A stretch of 64,000 nucleotides of DNA from positions 32,001 to 96,000 of the IMG/VR virus record IMGVR_UViG_3300047160_006886; one strand, written 5' to 3'. The notes beneath the pieces were generated by a model that worked only from the letters and a program-made list of their open reading frames with translations, searched no databases and had not been told where the DNA came from. Both the position numbers and the translations under genes were made by a program. Below, one piece after another: positions 16,264 to 49,414 of the stretch (the first letter of the stretch is position 1; each line of letters begins with the position of its first letter). The stretch is from a virus.

Positions 16264-17910
16264 TCACCTCTGAATCGATCCTACCATATCGGAAGAAAAT
16301 CTCGGCTGAGCGTGGGGACCGGCGACCACCTTCCTCGGCTCGTGCAGCATGCCCCAACAAGCAAGGACGAAGGCGTCTGCCTCGTCAGGAGAGCAGCCGA
16401 GGATCTCGGTCAGCGTCTTCTCCCTGGAGTCGGGGTCCTTCTTGTTCTTGGCTGGCAGGTACAGCCTGCCTTCGCCGTCTCTCAACCTGGGAATGCCGGC
16501 GAGCTGACGACTCAGCTCCCAATACGGGTCTCCCCGCCGTCCTCGCGGCAGTCCGAATCCTCGCGGGTTGATGGAAGGGTCGAAGAGCATCGAGGCTTCC
16601 CCGTACATCTCTGCCCTGCGATTGACGTAGACGTAGCGATCCTCCCTCATCTCCAGGCGGGTGGCGAAGGGAACCTTGCTGGTGCCCCGCCTGATGTCAG
16701 CCAAGATACCCTCGCCGAAGGCCACCGTCCGCACCTCGTAGCCTTGAGCCCTGAGGCGATCCGCATGCTGCTTCCCTCCACCACCACGGTCTAAGAGCAC
16801 GTTCTGCCAGTCCTCTCGCTTCTGCGGACTCAACCACCGCTTGGCGAAGGCGATGATGTCGCCGGTCACCTCACTCGTGTCCGGAGTCTTGCGAGACTCG
16901 ACCTCGATCACGCCTAGCTCGTCCACCGCGACCATCGCAGTGTTTGCTGAGCCCTCGCCAGGGTCAACTCCAACTGCTCTAGCCTTTCGATGACTCCGCG
17001 AAGCATTCTGCGGAAGCTCCTCAGCTCTCGTGAGCCAATCTTGGGAGAAGAGCTTGTTCTCTGGGCCTTCGTAGAACTCTGCCTTGTGCGCGACCGAGAT
17101 CCACTCCGGGTCGTCGGCCCTGGTCTCTTGTTCTTCACGGTATCTGCTCCAGCTCTTGACTCCAGGCACCAGGATCTCGTCGGTCGGCTCGACGCCAGCA
17201 GCGATCTGAGATCGGGCGTACCTCACGTTCGGGGAGTCCTCGGCGGTCAGGCGGAGGACGTTCCTGAACAGCTTGCCGTCGACGATCCGGTTGCCCTCCT
17301 TGACGGCCCTCCGCCAGAAGTTGTCGCACGGCCAGGTGTTGCCGATGACCAGGATGCGGTCGGCCCACGGAGCGGCGGTGTCCATGTACTCGTCGTTGAC
17401 CGAACTCGCCTCGTCGACGATGAAGAGCGTCCTCGGGATGCCGTCCGAGCTGGCGATGTGGTGGCCTCCCATCGCGGCCATCGAGTCGGCCGAGGCGACC
17501 ATGCCCTTGCAGTAGCTCTTCGGACAGACGCCGTCGCGAGTCACCTTCCTCAGCTCCTGGTGGTTGATGATCAACGGCCCGCCCAGCTTGAAGTCCAACA
17601 CGAACTTGCACGTGCGGATGAAGTTGTTGATCTCCCCCCAGAGCACGCGGAGGTGGTCCTCCTTGGCCGAGGTGGTGATGATGCGGCAGGGATGCCTCGT
17701 CAGGAAGAAACAGAACGCCTCCCAGCCGGCCACGAAGTCCTTGCCCATCTGTTGGCTCGCCGGCACGAAGGTCTGACGGTTGTCGAGGACCGAGAACAGG
17801 ATGTCCTCCTCCTCGGGATAGAACCAGTAGGGAGAGCCGTCTGGCTGCCGGGAGAAGCCGTCCGGGAAGCACAGCTTGGCGAACTCGACTGGGTCGATCT
17901 GCTGGCTCAT
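16264..17910 (-). CDS. terL: Terminase large subunit
   Basis: Walker A-like ASQQMGKDF, Walker B FIVDEAS, nuclease GVDPGEG and SPDEADA; start MSQQID behind GAGG. Confidence 0.9.
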   Translation of the reverse strand: MSQQIDPVEFAKLCFPDGFSRQPDGSPYWFYPEEEDILFSVLDNRQTFVPASQQMGKDFVAGWEAFCFFLTRHPCRIITTSAKEDHLRVLWGEINNFIRTCKFVLDFKLGGPLIINHQELRKVTRDGVCPKSYCKGMVASADSMAAMGGHHIASSDGIPRTLFIVDEASSVNDEYMDTAAPWADRILVIGNTWPCDNFWRRAVKEGNRIVDGKLFRNVLRLTAEDSPNVRYARSQIAAGVEPTDEILVPGVKSWSRYREEQETRADDPEWISVAHKAEFYEGPENKLFSQDWLTRAEELPQNASRSHRKARAVGVDPGEGSANTAMVAVDELGVIEVESRKTPDTSEVTGDIIAFAKRWLSPQKREDWQNVLLDRGGGGKQHADRLRAQGYEVRTVAFGEGILADIRRGTSKVPFATRLEMREDRYVYVNRRAEMYGEASMLFDPSINPRGFGLPRGRRGDPYWELSRQLAGIPRLRDGEGRLYLPAKNKKDPDSREKTLTEILGCSPDEADAFVLACWGMLHEPRKVVAGPHAQPRFSSDMVGSIQR

Positions 17911-21531: not shown

Positions 21532-21617
21532 TGCAAGTAGATTCGAGTTGATGGTTTAGGGACGTATCCCTTGGCGGCTCGAATCAGGAAACACTCGCCC
21601 GACAGGAGATCAGTATC

Positions 21618-22217
21618 ATGGCAGCCATTACCCTCACCGGAACCCAGGTTCGCGTCCTCAAGGCACTGGCCAGTGTCAAGACCGCCGGCGGATCGCTCAC
21701 CCGCAAGCAGATCGCGGCCAAGGCGTTCAACGGCAACTCGGTCAACTTCGTCCCCATCCTGGACCCGCTCCTCAAGGCCAAGTACGTCAAGCAGATCGAG
21801 AGTGACGAGGGCGGTGCGGACGATGCGTCCCATACCAGCTTCGCCATCACCGCTCCCGGTCGTGCGGCAGCGAGCAAAGCCCCTGAGCATCCCGTCCGGG
21901 GCAACGGCTCCACCGAGCACAAGTCCCTGCCCAAGGTCGGCGAGAGCTTCACCAAAACGTACAACGGTAAGGATTACAAGGTCACTCGCACCGAGGCCGG
22001 GTTCCGTTATGCGGGTAAGGAATACGCATCCCTCACCGCGACCGCCAAGGCCGTTCGTGGTACCGATCAGGAGGTCAACGGCTGGCTGTTCTTCGGATTC
22101 GTGAAGCCCAAGGCGGGCGAGGCCAAGCCAGCCAAGACCACGACCGGCAAACCGAAGGCCAAGAAGGCGAAGGCGGCTCCGGCCGAGGCTCCGGTCCCGG
22201 CGACCACAGCCAGCTAA
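21618..22217 (+). CDS. wHTH-like plus DUF2924 protein (moron)
   Basis: KTYNGKDYKV...GFRYAGKEYASLTATAKAV.G...NGWLFFG; AGGAG RBS. Confidence 0.8.
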   Translation: MAAITLTGTQVRVLKALASVKTAGGSLTRKQIAAKAFNGNSVNFVPILDPLLKAKYVKQIESDEGGADDASHTSFAITAPGRAAASKAPEHPVRGNGSTEHKSLPKVGESFTKTYNGKDYKVTRTEAGFRYAGKEYASLTATAKAVRGTDQEVNGWLFFGFVKPKAGEAKPAKTTTGKPKAKKAKAAPAEAPVPATTAS

Positions 22218-30447: not shown

Positions 30448-30540
30448 GATCTTTCGTCCTCACTTTCTGCTGATGAAAATGGGGAGCCGTACTGTGCTCC
30501 GTCGAGCGTTTCCGGACTCCCCGGCCACGTGGATTTCCCT

Positions 30541-31449
30541 TCATTTTACGACAGTTTTCGGCAAATTCTTGAGCGGCGAGACGGGATCGCCCCGGCTCAG
30601 CTTGTCGATGATCTCGAACGCCGAGACCGTCGGTCTTTGCCCGGTCCGGCCGAGCACGACGATCTCGGGCAGCAGGTCCGGCCTGGTCGTGCGGAACTTC
30701 GTGTAATACGTGTCGAGCTGATCGCAGCAACGCAGGCAATATTCGGTCCCGGCCCGCACCTTGCTCACGGCGTCTGTGCCTGGAATCTTCTGCTCGACGA
30801 ATCGAGGCCGGAGAAAAGTCTGGACAAAGAAATCGAACTCGCGGTTGAGGAACAGGCACACCGACGGTGTCGTGCCGGCGTTCACGACCGGGGCGATGAT
30901 GTCTGATGTCTTGTCCTCCTCCGTGCCGGAGAAGACCCGCTCGTGGGCGACCACGACCAGGTGACCGGGCAAGTTCAGGAGTGGGCGGAACATGTCCTTG
31001 ATGTCGATGGCGATCTGTCCCCATGTCCGCTTGTTGTCGCCGATGATGGGACGTTGCAACGGCACCTCCTCCAGGCCAAGGACTTCCTTCAGGTCGAGGT
31101 CTTGGAGTCCGCCGACGTGGTCCAGGACCACAGTAGCGAAGCTCGGAGCCTCCTCCTTGACGATCCGGCGGAACTGATCCGTGGACGAGATCACCGTCGC
31201 CTTGACCTTCTTCCGCATCTCGGGCGTGTTGATGCTCCGCAACTCGCCGGGCCTCAGACCGGACGAGCACACGAGGGCCAAGATCGGTCCCGGAAACGAT
31301 GACCAGAGCGTGGTCTTGCCGGTGCGGCTCTGCCCATACACCACGAGCCGGATCTGGTCGATGAAGTCCCAGGCCGACTGATCAACCGTCGATTTCTGAC
31401 TCAGGGACGGCCTGCTGTTGCTTGCGACTTGCTTCGTCACCGTCGGCAT
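30541..31449 (-). CDS. AAA_24/Sak4-like ATPase
   Basis: YGQSRTGKTT, TVVLDH, VVAHE. Confidence 0.8.
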   Translation of the reverse strand: MPTVTKQVASNSRPSLSQKSTVDQSAWDFIDQIRLVVYGQSRTGKTTLWSSFPGPILALVCSSGLRPGELRSINTPEMRKKVKATVISSTDQFRRIVKEEAPSFATVVLDHVGGLQDLDLKEVLGLEEVPLQRPIIGDNKRTWGQIAIDIKDMFRPLLNLPGHLVVVAHERVFSGTEEDKTSDIIAPVVNAGTTPSVCLFLNREFDFFVQTFLRPRFVEQKIPGTDAVSKVRAGTEYCLRCCDQLDTYYTKFRTTRPDLLPEIVVLGRTGQRPTVSAFEIIDKLSRGDPVSPLKNLPKTVVK

Positions 31450-31609
31450 GTGGTTGTCCTTTCTCCAACAATTCCGACCTGAAGATGGGCACCTCTCGCG
31501 GTGCCTCGATCCCCAGCCGGACCTTGCCTCTGTCTATCTCCCTGACCGTGACGACCACGTCATCACCGATCACGATTGACTCTCCCAACTTCCTGACGAT
31601 TACAAGCAT
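31382..31609 (-). CDS. csrA: Carbon storage regulator (RNA-binding translational regulator)
   Basis: MLVIVRKLGESIVIGDDV...KVRLGIEAPREVPIFRSEL. Confidence 0.92.
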   Translation of the reverse strand: MLVIVRKLGESIVIGDDVVVTVREIDRGKVRLGIEAPREVPIFRSELLEKGQPHADGDEASRKQQQAVPESEIDG

Positions 31610-35343: not shown

Positions 35344-35344
35344 G

Positions 35345-35477
35345 ATCTCATTTTATTCGATTTCCCCGGAAATCCGGGGAAAAACTAATTAGAAAAATTT
35401 TCCCAGAATTCCGTTTTTTCCTCTTTACTTCGGCGAATAAGTTTATTACCTTAATAGGTAGATTGATCATTGACAAC
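35345..35477. promoter_or_regulatory. Divergent promoter region with a rightward sigma70-like promoter and a boxA-like element
   Basis: AT-rich; TTTACT(35424)-N17-TACCTT; tgatcattgacaac resembles rrn boxA; palindrome tttccccgga/tccggggaaa. Confidence 0.6.
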
Positions 35478-35700
35478 CGACCGCAGAACCGGACGACGGC
35501 CAGCCCAGGACGGGCAAGACGAAGGCGTGCACCGGGACGCAGCGGGGGGATCGGAGGGGGATGACCCAAACCGATCCCGGCAGACCTGGCAGAACCAGGA
35601 AGTCATCCGAGTCACGCAGATCGAAAGATCGTCAGTGCTACCCTGGAACGGTTTGAAACAGGCGGAAGCCGAGACCGGGTCCATCCCCAAGCCGCGTGGC
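35478..35700 (+). ncRNA. Candidate structured RNA, family unknown
   Basis: No credible ORF; stems gggatcgg/ccgatccc, ggatgac/gtcatcc, cctgg/ccagg and gatc-GAAA-gatc. Confidence 0.5.
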
Positions 35701-35788
35701 TAGAACCTAAACCAACCTGCTCGATCATCTTGGAGCCATCCGAGAGGCAGCCCGTCCCAAGTCGGGAAGCAATGGTGAGGGGGTTCTA
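35701..35788 (+). ncRNA. Twister self-cleaving ribozyme (type P1)
   Basis: P1 tagaacc/ggttcta; L1 UAA and GAGGG; P2 acca/tggt; P3 ctgc/gcag; P4 cccg/cggg with loop UCCCAAGU; T1 CCC/GGG and T2 AC/GU. Confidence 0.85.
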
Positions 35789-35802
35789 ACCTGGAGAGAA
35801 TC

Positions 35803-36105
35803 ATGGGGTATCTACAGAATGCGATGACTGTTGGTCAACTGCGAAAAGAACTTGAAGGACTGCCGGATGACGCCGTGGTCCTCTACGTCTGCGATTACGG
35901 CGATCACTGCCACACGCAGCAAGCCCTGCCCATCTCTGAAATCGCCGACCTCGGATGCGACGAGCGGATCGAAGAGTCGGCGTACAGCAGCTCTGGCCTC
36001 TGCCTCTTAACCATCAATGATGAAGACGAGGATGACGACGAGGACAGCGAAAAGGAAACCGAAGAGGAAGAGACCGAAGACCGGAACTACATCATCCTGC
36101 GTTAG
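35803..36105 (+). CDS. Acidic early protein
   Basis: MTVGQLRKELEGLPDDA motif; GGAG RBS. Confidence 0.7.
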   Translation: MGYLQNAMTVGQLRKELEGLPDDAVVLYVCDYGDHCHTQQALPISEIADLGCDERIEESAYSSSGLCLLTINDEDEDDDEDSEKETEEEETEDRNYIILR

Positions 36106-36377
36106 CGAACTAACAGCGGGGTCTAGGATCGATCATCCGAACACCGGACTCTCCAGACCGGCCCGACCCCGCTTCTTTCTTTCTGGAGTCTCAACCCTTT
36201 ACTGGAGAAAGCCATGTCCGAGAGAGTTCACCTGGTTCCCAAGTCCATGATCGAGCAGTGGAAGGCTGAGCTGCGACGCGAGAAGCAGGTCCAGCCCGCT
36301 ATTCCCCTCGACCGGGCTATCCGGGCGGCGGCGAGCCTGCGAGCACGATTGACCCTGCGGAGAAAGGTGGTGATGGC

Positions 36378-36812
36378 ATGATCGACATCGACTTCATCAA
36401 GGCCGGCCGGGCGATCTTCACCATCGCCAACGACCAAGGCAAGTGGTACACGTACCGCGTGGACCACAAGGAAGCCCGGACCGAGGAGTTCGCTGGCAAG
36501 GGCGCTCGGACCTACCCCGAAGCGTGGTTCGTCAAGCTCCTCACCGGCCCCTCGAACGACAGTGACTACACTTACGTCGGAATCTTAAACTGCGAGCGGG
36601 TCAGGTTGACTCAACGCAGCCCTTACACCGAGGACTCGATCCCGGTGAGGGTGTTCGACTTCGCCCTGCGGGTGATCCTGGGCAAGCAAGCACTGCCGCC
36701 GGGTTACTCGATCCATCACGAGGGCCGCTGCGGTCGCTGTGGCCGCAGGCTGACGGTCCCCAGCAGCATCGAGTCGGGCATCGGCCCCGAGTGTGCGAGG
36801 AGGATGGCATGA
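36378..36812 (+). CDS. DUF6011-like protein
   Basis: GRCGRCGRRLTVPSSIESGIGPECA. Confidence 0.8.
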   Translation: MIDIDFIKAGRAIFTIANDQGKWYTYRVDHKEARTEEFAGKGARTYPEAWFVKLLTGPSNDSDYTYVGILNCERVRLTQRSPYTEDSIPVRVFDFALRVILGKQALPPGYSIHHEGRCGRCGRRLTVPSSIESGIGPECARRMA

Positions 36813-37108
36813 AGGAGATCATCACTCTTCGGACCGACGAGTACGTGGACAAGAAGGGCCACATCCGACGGCGAGCCGGCAAAGTCCCGGACTGCGACTG
36901 CTGCGGAAAGCCTGCCCTAGTCCTGATGGAGATTGGCCGGTACAAAGACGACTGGCTGATCCAACAGTGCGACACTTGCCTAGAGCTGGTCTGCTCTGAG
37001 TGTTGCGATGTGACCGACAACGGGGAAGTGGTTTGCATCGATTGTTTGCAGGACCCCAATCGTCCGCTGAGGAGAAGTCATGACCCAAGTTACGAAAGAC
37101 CAAATTAA
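36809..37108 (+). CDS. Cys-rich Zn-binding protein
   Basis: Four CxxC pairs; GAGG RBS. Confidence 0.55.
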   Translation: MKEIITLRTDEYVDKKGHIRRRAGKVPDCDCCGKPALVLMEIGRYKDDWLIQQCDTCLELVCSECCDVTDNGEVVCIDCLQDPNRPLRRSHDPSYERPN

Positions 37109-37322
37109 GGCAGCGATCCAGATCACTCTGGCCATCGCCGACGCCATCCGCGAGCTGGGCGAGGTGCCTTCGGGTCACCTCTACGCCCGGATCGGACACC
37201 TGAGCATCGAGGACTACAACAGCATCATCGACATCCTGAAGCGAGGCGGGCTGGTCAAGGAGCAGCACCATCTGCTCACCTGGATCGGTCCCAAACCTGA
37301 CGAAGGGAGACCCAAGCAATGA
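37080..37322 (+). CDS. Small wHTH-like protein
   Basis: ADAIRELGEVPSGHLYA; GAGGAG RBS. Confidence 0.7.
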   Translation: MTQVTKDQIKAAIQITLAIADAIRELGEVPSGHLYARIGHLSIEDYNSIIDILKRGGLVKEQHHLLTWIGPKPDEGRPKQ

Positions 37323-37633
37323 AGGTGATAGATCACAATGGCTCTGGCAAACAGTGGGCAAAGAACTGCTCGATGAGGAAGCGACTCGTCCACTTCCTCG
37401 CCAACGCGACCGGGCGAGGTTGGGACTGGCGAACCCTGGCCGAACTGAGCGACGAGGAGATCCGCGAAAGAGCCGCCGAGAGACACACCGACGCGGAGCA
37501 GGATATCGAAGACCTCACCGCCTTCGGGCTCTGGCCCATGCCTCGCTGGATGTTCAGCCGCGGCCTCGACCTACACGGGGCTGAAGCGATGAGGCCGTAC
37601 CTCTCGCCCAAGAAGGAGGTGGTCGAGTCATGA
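37319..37633 (+). CDS. Hypothetical protein
   Basis: ATGA-coupled start. Confidence 0.6.
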   Translation: MKVIDHNGSGKQWAKNCSMRKRLVHFLANATGRGWDWRTLAELSDEEIRERAAERHTDAEQDIEDLTAFGLWPMPRWMFSRGLDLHGAEAMRPYLSPKKEVVES

Positions 37634-38007
37634 CCAGCGTCGCTCACTCACCCGAGTGCTTGAAGGCCCAAGCGGCCTACAAGAGCTACATCGAGAAGTG
37701 GCCCGACTATTGCACGGGCTGCGGTGGCTGGGGCCAGAAGAGTTACACCACCAATCAGTCTCCCATCGGCAGCGGCGAGTATTGGCCGATGACCGAGAGC
37801 GAGCCGTGCTTGGCATGCGAGGGCACCTGCCCTCGCTGCCGCGATCCGAAGCGAGGGAACTGGACTGGCAAGCTGTGCAAGAAGTGCGGCTGGTCCTGCC
37901 GGGACGGCGGCATCCCGGAAGTCGAGTGCTACTGCGGCATGGAGGACGAGCCGAGCGTCGAGGAGATCGAAGCGTATCTGGAACGAACCAGAAAGGAGCA
38001 ATCATGA
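37630..38007 (+). CDS. Cys-rich protein
   Basis: CTGCGG, CLAC, CPRC, CKKC. Confidence 0.65.
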   Translation: MTSVAHSPECLKAQAAYKSYIEKWPDYCTGCGGWGQKSYTTNQSPIGSGEYWPMTESEPCLACEGTCPRCRDPKRGNWTGKLCKKCGWSCRDGGIPEVECYCGMEDEPSVEEIEAYLERTRKEQS

Positions 38008-49070: not shown

Positions 49071-49414
49071 CTCTCACTCCTCACAATCCAGCATCTCGCA
49101 GAAGTCGTCGATGGACACCGTCGGCGGACCTTCCATGCTGATCAGCATCTCGACGGGGAACACGAACATGCCCTCACCCTCCTTCCGCTTCCTCGTCTCC
49201 GGCTCACGCCGGCTTCCATTCCACTTCCCAAAACCGCCAGCACTCGGCACAGCGCCTGAGCACCTTCACGAAATACACGCGGTCAAAAGTGGTCGATCTT
49301 GGCATCGACTTGGGGAGGATCGCGGAATTTCTCGCCGCAATAGATGCAGCGATCAGGCACGCCGATGGGCAGCGTGACCTTGCGGCCAAGAGGGGTGTAG
49401 ACGGTGAGCATGGG

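Follow-up and report, generated by a model that had tools for sequence, protein, structure and literature searches.

A boxA-like element and a twister ribozyme candidate bound a putative untranslated leader in an uncultivated phage

The locus

The window analyzed here is a stretch of 64,000 nucleotides, positions 32001-96000 of a 111,990-bp virus record from IMG/VR that is ~93% complete. Within it, a 459-nt divergent intergenic stretch (35344-35802) separates two sets of genes. On the minus strand to the left lie a 98-aa ORF, a gene for a RuvC-type resolvase (PHROG 1770), and a uracil-DNA-glycosylase-like gene; this is the replication and repair side. To the right is a plus-strand run of small genes, which begins at the ATG at 35803. 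The first of these, together with its SD sequence GGAGAG, occupies 35793-36105 (+) and encodes 100 aa, with a DYGDHCHTQQ motif and a weak match to DUF6225.

Directly after this first gene comes a terminator-like branched stem with a U-rich tract (36116-36186, +): two small hairpins sit inside a 9-bp stem, which is followed by UUCUUUCUUUCU. The element is int-alpA-like (RF02996, 32.4 bits against a cut-off of 35.8, E 1.4e-4), and its fold z is -2.2. It is a possible target for antitermination. If it does terminate transcription, then a boxA-modified polymerase would be needed for the remaining genes of the run.

A sequence-only reading of the intergenic stretch had placed in it a promoter, a boxA-like motif, an array of helices, and the cut site of a twister ribozyme. 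It had proposed that these delimit a discrete noncoding RNA of ~250 nt, which might serve as an antiterminator, as an anti-defence decoy, or as a partner for the phage CsrA (whose gene lies in the window at 31382-31609). All of the named motifs are indeed present, within one or two bases of where that reading had put them, although statistically they carry modest weight.

No close kin of the phage turned up in the searched collections. Homologues of the first gene were found at 2 IMG/VR and 32 metagenome loci, those of RuvC at 3 loci, and those of the DNA polymerase at 25 IMG/VR loci and 1 genome locus; the helicase search returned only relatives at about 25-35% identity. Apart from these helicase relatives, the homologues are 35-60% identical at the protein level. 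By whole-genome tblastn, the phage has 22 ORFs in common with one relative, G001, and 46 with another, G002, at ~30-55% identity.

The promoter and the boxA-like element

A promoter can be read from the sequence at 35424-35452 (+). It consists of three parts: a -35 hexamer, TTTACT (35424-35429), with a further T behind it; a 17-nt spacer that contains the motif GGCGAATAA; and a -10 hexamer, TACCTT (35447-35452). Transcription would then start at about 35459-35461. The match to consensus is poor (7 of 12 positions, with a weak -10), and a consensus scan does not call the promoter. Nevertheless, the TTTACT-N17-TACCTT arrangement is present as first proposed, and its -35 and spacer motif are kept in relatives. 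The combination TTTACTTnGGCnnATAA is found once each, at the operon head of G002 (locus L002) as in the phage, and a similar form of -35 and spacer occurs also in G016 (L099), G015 (L153), and G025 (L111). Both the promoter motif and the box motif are single-copy in the phage genome and in that of G002, and a scan of IMG/VR for the promoter-plus-box pattern returned G002 only.

The boxA-like element itself, TGATCATTGACAAC, occupies 35464-35477 (+), within the first ~20 nt of the predicted transcript. The pattern GNTCNTTGAMAAC, of which the phage genome has a single copy, was scanned against 29 virus records of distant relatives. Eight of them contain it, each a single time; the reversed control gave 1 match, and the chance expectation is ~0.4 (our own estimate, based on the pattern and on how much sequence there is). 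Four of the eight matches (the phage, G002, G016, and G015) are promoter-proximal, each standing at an operon head behind a promoter of the TTTACTT type.

Seven versions of the box, those of the sister elements described below included, conform to G-n-T-C-(A/T/C)-T-T-G-A-(A/C)-A-A-C. The gamma-proteobacterial BoxA consensus is GYTCTTTAANA (PMC5725501). Each of the invariant positions G1, T3, C4, T6, T7, A9, and A11 is a specified position of that consensus, and variable position 10 is its N. The box agrees with the consensus at 7 of the 10 specified positions in the phage and in G002, and at 9 of the 10 in G016, the yardstick being a gamma-proteobacterial one. In the E. coli suhB case, the C4T/T6C double mutant loses Nus-factor recruitment and its function is abolished (PMC5725501). 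C4 and T6 do not vary across the phage versions. Position 8, by contrast with the consensus, is a G in every version, and there is variation at positions 2 and 5. A G at position 8 is the form of boxA found in the rRNA leaders of Firmicutes, Mollicutes, and cyanobacteria. The mycoplasma PCR primer GTTCTTTGAAAACTGAAT contains the exact G016 box (PMC3019172).

A possible host can be named only through G002, whose contig has also been deposited in a Dehalococcoidia MAG. That bin contains 14 box matches, versus 2 for the control. The extra matches were considered as rRNA operons, an explanation that was rejected: they are located outside the rRNA operons. Genomes of this Dehalococcoidia order that have a 16S gene carry a leader boxA, GCACCTTAACAAC, located 37-53 nt before 16S, which is identical to the phage box at 9 of 13 positions and to the G002 box at 10 of 13, the host link consisting of the binning of the G002 contig. 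Because binning is weak evidence for a host, this comparison neither confirms nor refutes the boxA reading.

In each of four phages and four small elements, the box has the orientation of transcription and stands at the 5' end of a predicted untranslated RNA of some length. This is the known setting of boxA (PMC5725501; for T7, a passage in PMC3709561). It bears on another explanation, namely that the box is a DNA- or RNA-level site for some other factor (a regulator of phage or host origin, or some element close to the promoter) and that the rest is a spacer leader trimmed by the ribozyme. Indeed, the box contains a perfect TTGACA hexamer and falls within +5 to +35, where operators also occur; a second conserved motif, CCGATA, in the promoter spacer suggests a bound protein; and the rRNA boxA of the sole candidate host differs from the box at 3-4 of 13 positions. 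However, dyad symmetry is absent across the seven versions, no -10 stands behind TTGACA in any of them, and the positions that vary and those that do not are distributed as in the published BoxA consensus, with the box on the strand and at the transcript end where boxA is known to act. A site for another factor is an unlikely account of the box.

Two narrower proposals were rejected outright: TTGACA as a -35 element, since no -10 follows it, and a lambda-Q-type pause site, since the arrangement of elements does not fit. The claim of a boxA-like element holds up, the motif at 35464-77 being conserved and single-copy in relatives. The accompanying suggestion of an antiterminator is compatible with this conserved box.

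A ribozyme candidate at the leader/mRNA junction

At the other end of the leader is a Twister-P1-type ribozyme candidate (35698-35791, +). Its core spans 35704-35785, and its P1 stem can be extended to 10 bp (35698-707/35782-91). The RF03160 score of 42.2 bits is below the gathering cut-off of 67.2 (E 1.1e-7 in a 1.1-kb search, 2.7e-9 per genome). Nevertheless, the alignment covers the whole model (positions 1-68), all of P1-P4 appear in the MFE fold, and the core is complete: P1-P4; the U-A cleavage dinucleotide; the GUCCCAAG loop; GAGGG; and both pseudoknots. One pseudoknot, as read from the alignment, has AC/GU in place of the consensus GC/GC, which is a compensatory change. The element is thus a credible twister candidate rather than a proven ribozyme.

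Cleavage is predicted between U35708 and A35709, 95 nt upstream of the start codon. Given the predicted start at the promoter and box, this cut would be expected to yield a 5' fragment of ~249 nt, which the 10-bp P1 might hold on the mRNA. The bounds first drawn for the stretch are sound to this extent: a conserved promoter and boxA-like element on one side, and a credible twister candidate on the other.

The corresponding junction in related phages is instructive. Before its first-gene homologue, G002 has TTTACTTtGGCcgATAA...TATACT, then TGGTCCTTGACAAC, then a leader of ~300 nt that cannot be aligned to that of the phage and in which no ribozyme is recognizable. Because G002 keeps the promoter, the box, and a long leader in this form, not every such leader would be cleaved. 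Behind the box of G016 comes a stop-rich leader of 125 nt and then a type II hammerhead candidate (34.6 bits against a cut-off of 37, E 8e-7 per genome), ~10 nt before the SD of an HNH gene. G015 has 160 nt between its box and a type III hammerhead candidate, which directly precedes the SD and ATG (33.4 bits, cut-off 48.5, E 6e-7). G025 has the same type of promoter, then a 46-aa ORF with a good SD, a type II hammerhead (42.1 bits, above the cut-off), and the next gene. Three further relatives have a type II hammerhead between genes.

Thus, in three of the four phages that have both promoter and box, a noncoding leader of 125-230 nt ends in a ribozyme candidate that lies at most ~10 nt before an SD. 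The class of ribozyme at the leader end differs: twister in the phage, hammerhead II in G016, and hammerhead III in G015. (Of the candidates compared at these junctions, the twister and the hammerheads of G016 and G015 fall short of the Rfam gathering cut-offs; the third hammerhead, that of G025, exceeds its own.) That three unrelated classes occupy the same leader/mRNA junction argues that the cut itself is selected, not a particular RNA.

A sister cassette

A common layout is shared by a group of sister elements, comprising three small contigs (L125, L128, and L130) and one IMG/VR contig (L161). Their promoter reads TTGACA..CCGATA..TAC(G/A)(C/G)T. The box is followed by CGAC, and the resulting 17-mer is identical to that of the phage in L125 and L161 and differs at one or two positions in L128 and L130. 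The leader of 165 nt is U-poor, and it ends just before the SD in a long hairpin that shows compensatory changes. No ribozyme turned up in any of the four.

Among the sister elements, box and leader are 90-92% identical and the divergent upstream gene 81-88%, whereas the first downstream genes are unrelated. Since the leader is kept while the genes behind it are not, the promoter-box-leader unit behaves as a conserved cassette before exchangeable cargo. This pattern hints that the leader body is under constraint in the sister lineage, and that the body of a leader may itself be of importance.

The leader body

Between the box and the ribozyme candidate of the phage lies the leader body (35478-35697, +): U-poor, rich in G, C, and A, lineage-specific, and similar to no related locus. 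Its most unusual intrinsic property is a T content of 10.8% for the leader, in the lowest 0.6% of genome windows.

The helices that had been noted here do exist. A possible H-type pseudoknot spans 35547-35608 (+). The 8-bp S1 pairs GGGATCGG (35547-54) with CCGATCCC (35571-78), and the interleaved 7-bp S2 pairs GGATGAC (35559-65) with GTCATCC (35602-08); loop 3 contains a 5-bp hairpin, CCTGG-CAGAA-CCAGG (35585-99). S1 is rivalled by an alternative 14-nt pairing (35567-80/35642-55). Against shuffled sequences, however, helices and pseudoknot are only marginal. The leader has 3 perfect stems of at least 7 bp versus 0.8 expected (P=0.043), and an interleaved stem pair occurs in 4.3% of dinucleotide shuffles (P=0.043). 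Neither strand folds significantly better than shuffles: the MFE z is -1.52 for the 256 nt of 35455-35710 and -1.62 for the opposite strand. The two GNRA-capped hairpins, GATC-GAAA-GATC (35619-30) and GGC-GGAA-GCC (35661-70), are present as well, but their stems of 3-4 bp are trivial. An 8-nt complementarity between leader and twister (35508-15/35750-57) also exists; it was set aside, as its like appears in 24% of shuffles.

Comparison with known sequences leaves the body without a family. At gathering scores, no Rfam family matches anywhere in the window, and at E<=10 there is no match to the plus strand of 35455-35700; with permissive E-values, only the twister and the int-alpA-like element surface. 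Searches of the leader/intergenic region by blastn and nhmmer against all related loci found through the neighboring genes gave no similarity. No homologue of the leader body was found in the 25 polymerase-related loci, in the 32 metagenome loci, or in a scan of IMG/VR for the 17-mer, which produced one real match and seven chance matches in coding DNA. Pairwise local alignment of all leaders, judged against shuffles, revealed no significant similarity except within the near-identical trio L125, L128, and L130. There is no second copy of the leader in the 112-kb record and no match in the INPHARED phages.

The link to CsrA fares poorly. The leader contains 9 GGA motifs versus 10.0 +/- 2.1 in shuffles, and 11.7% of genome windows of the same size have at least 9; ANGGA does not occur in it. 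The "several" GGA motifs are what composition alone predicts, so a role as CsrA partner loses its footing, even though the phage does have a CsrA gene. On the same counts, a CsrA sponge like CsrB or RsmZ was rejected. Also rejected were a DGR template repeat and a retron msr-msd, there being no reverse transcriptase (PF00078) in the 112-kb record.

These results weigh on the proposal that the ~249-nt fragment is a functional noncoding RNA (a decoy, a sponge, or a polymerase-bound cofactor), and that promoter and ribozyme exist to make it as the first product of the phage. Such an RNA would have its 5' and 3' ends defined by the promoter and the ribozyme. Its stems and interleaved helix pair do exceed shuffles (P=0.04), its U content is extremely low, a CsrA is at hand, and the sister leader is better conserved than its flanking gene and has a covarying hairpin. 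Yet phages that share the promoter and box have leaders with no sequence relationship to one another, and no body homologue appeared in any of the three collections searched. Moreover, the fold (MFE z -1.5) is equalled by the opposite strand, GGA is unenriched and ANGGA absent, Rfam gives no match, and the extended P1 may keep the fragment on the mRNA. A discrete RNA with its own function, as first envisaged, is accordingly a doubtful prospect: its body lacks homologues in related loci, a significant fold, and an Rfam match. Neither a new structured RNA class nor a CsrA sponge in the stretch is supported.

The stretch had also been called ORF-poor. In fact a 77-codon ORF (35470-35703, +) spans it, with a TTG start and no SD. 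Its codon score of -0.006 falls between those of spurious ORFs (-0.16 +/- 0.23) and real genes (0.24 +/- 0.16), and it is judged noncoding; the description is thus half right. The frame is open because T is depleted and all stop codons begin with T; at T = 10.8%, the chance that a given frame stays open over this length is ~0.1 (our own calculation). No conserved coding signal appeared, whether in the codon score, in Pfam or PHROG (no match), or in homologue searches, which found no credible homologue among 1.84 billion representative proteins. That the ORF codes for an early protein of 77 aa and terminates directly at the ribozyme is very improbable: the open frame, its GC3 of 0.72 (above its GC2 of 0.54), its intermediate codon score, the hammerheads that directly follow a stop codon in several relatives, and the 46-aa ORF with a good SD in the G025 leader all speak for it, but the TTG lies ~10 nt from the predicted 5' end, and the equivalent leaders of G002, G015, and G016 have stops in every frame.

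A model for the leader

Taken together, the stretch is probably, though by no means certainly, the untranslated 5' leader of a rightward early operon, which would carry an antitermination signal of the rRNA/T7 boxA type and be removed by a ribozyme. On the best reading it does not belong to any conserved RNA family. The model, whose steps from the start of transcription through Nus binding and antitermination to cleavage in vivo are all inferred from the sequence, runs as follows.

Host RNA polymerase would start at the conserved TTTACTT-type promoter, at about 35460. The host Nus complex (NusB/NusE and partners) would most likely be recruited by the boxA-like element, which lies within the transcript's first ~20 nt. 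The polymerase would then become resistant to termination, with protection of ~340 nt of untranslated RNA and readthrough of the 36116-36186 element. The twister would cut at 35708/35709, 95 nt before the start codon. This would leave a boxA-bearing fragment of ~249 nt, with a 5'-triphosphate at one end and a 2',3'-cyclic phosphate at the other; the downstream mRNA would begin with a 5'-OH and have the folded ribozyme just ahead of its SD. Cleavage could be of benefit through protection of the mRNA 5' end, or through the freeing of the ribosome-binding site.

A more speculative version goes a step further. Here the ribozyme would free a boxA-tagged RNA that either remains Nus-bound to the elongating polymerase or acts in trans, so that the leader becomes a detachable cofactor for antitermination. 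Only a slim chance is given to this idea. If it were true, the swapping of ribozyme classes would reflect selection for uncoupling a polymerase-bound RNA from the translated message.

Known systems and significance

Three known systems bear on the model of a boxA-bearing leader trimmed by a ribozyme, the closest described parallel being the early leader of T7. In T7, RNase III cuts the untranslated early leader off just before gene 0.3. A boxA behind the early host promoters of T7 has been shown genetically, as related in a passage of PMC3709561 that cites Savalia 2010. From the same passage comes the likeness in layout: an early promoter for host polymerase, then a boxA element. The differences are three: the phage has a candidate self-cleaving ribozyme where T7 employs host RNase III; it has one promoter where T7 has three or four; and its box deviates from the E. 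coli consensus.

The boxA of rRNA leaders and the nut sites of lambda share with the phage box an asymmetric element of 11-13 nt, G-y-U-C-U-U-U-r-A-n-A, close to where a lengthy untranslated RNA begins, with a strong promoter upstream (PMC5725501, PMC4807359). From these, the phage box differs in its constant G at position 8 and in its variable positions 2 and 5; neither a boxB or boxC partner nor an N-like protein was identified for it.

Small ribozymes of phages and prophages have been described in intergenic spacers directly upstream of genes, where they were read as elements of transcript processing; in one phage, a mapped transcript 5' end fell no more than 3 nt from the cut of a hammerhead (Perreault et al. 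2011, PMC3088659). The position of the phage candidate, in a spacer directly upstream of a gene, is alike. However, the ribozymes of that study separate gene from gene, whereas here a boxA-bearing leader would be separated from the first cistron, and three classes interchange at one junction behind one conserved promoter and box. RNAs of the CsrB/RsmZ type resemble the leader in being noncoding, rich in G and A, and found in a CsrA-encoding genome; the phage leader differs in that it has no ANGGA, no GGA repeats presented in loops, and no repeated hairpin units. Among the papers searched, none was found to describe a natural boxA-leader-ribozyme unit.

The biological role of most self-cleaving ribozymes of bacteria and phages is still unknown. 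The junction described here offers a testable one: a ribozyme may do at the phage leader what RNase III does at the early leader of T7. Under the best reading, moreover, antitermination of the rRNA boxA type would extend to uncultivated environmental phages.

Conservation of the leader cassette

A cassette of promoter, boxA-like box and leader is common to four small elements, three on contigs of the Dehalococcoidia MAG G028 (L125, L128 and L130) and one from IMG/VR (L161). Their promoter reads TTGACA..CCGATA and their box GATC(A/T)TTGACAACCGAC, with the variant GCTCA... in L130; the leader that follows is 165 nt long and U-poor, and ends in a long hairpin that carries compensatory changes. 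The four leaders are 90-92% identical, and the first genes downstream of them are completely different. The related phage record G009 presents another arrangement: its box, GGTCCTTGAAAAC (L146, 43025-43037), lies immediately 3' of a tRNA-like 3' end and is followed by about 290 nt of non-coding sequence, a placement resembling that of the spacer boxA of rRNA operons.

Candidate processing elements

Small self-cleaving ribozyme candidates occur, one each, in about 8 of the 29 related phage records: hammerhead II in six, hammerhead III in one, and twister in the window's own phage. Candidate sites lie in G015 (30452-30506), G016 (49171-49226) and G025 (17552-17615 and 21585-21644), and further candidates in G009, G020, G021 and G022; besides its hammerhead II, G025 has a second, weak twister-like match (24 bits). 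A ribosome-binding site stands immediately 3' of every hammerhead match in these records. In the leader of the relative G002 (L002 2806-2935, plus strand), a motif of the form CCUAUGACCC..CUAGU..GG.AGGC occurs three times as a loose repeat, alongside an 8-bp hairpin. No Rfam ribozyme match was found in this stretch, which could be a different processing element.

Within the window, leader positions 35508-35515 are perfectly complementary over 8 nt to the P4/loop core of the twister candidate (35750-35757). Such pairing could mask the ribozyme; because 24% of shuffles yield a complement of this kind, it is probably due to chance.

Phage CsrA, flanking signals and possible host

The sequence-only reading had offered the leader as a possible partner for the phage-encoded CsrA (window 31382-31609, minus strand; PF02599, 77.8 bits), a protein also encoded in G001 and G002. 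No CsrA-site pattern was seen in the leader.

A perfect 10-bp palindrome with a 2-nt gap, TTTCCCCGGA / TCCGGGGAAA (35361-35382), is located in the interval that separates the start of the leftward gene (35343) from the rightward promoter; it may serve as an operator or form a hairpin in the 5'-UTR of the leftward transcript. The coding strand is low in T throughout the rightward early block (35803-38007, plus strand; 16-17% T), and the leader, at 10.8% T, is the extreme of this trend.

The 73,771-bp G002 phage contig was deposited within a Dehalococcoidia MAG (L117, JBAZEO010000006.1), a placement that either hints at the host or arose as an artefact of binning.

Directly 3' of the first gene, a branched stem is followed by a U-rich tract (36116-36186, plus strand). 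This element has a fold z of -2.2 and matches int-alpA RNA below threshold (32.4 bits; cut-off, 35.8). It is a possible terminator, one that the boxA-modified polymerase would have to get past.
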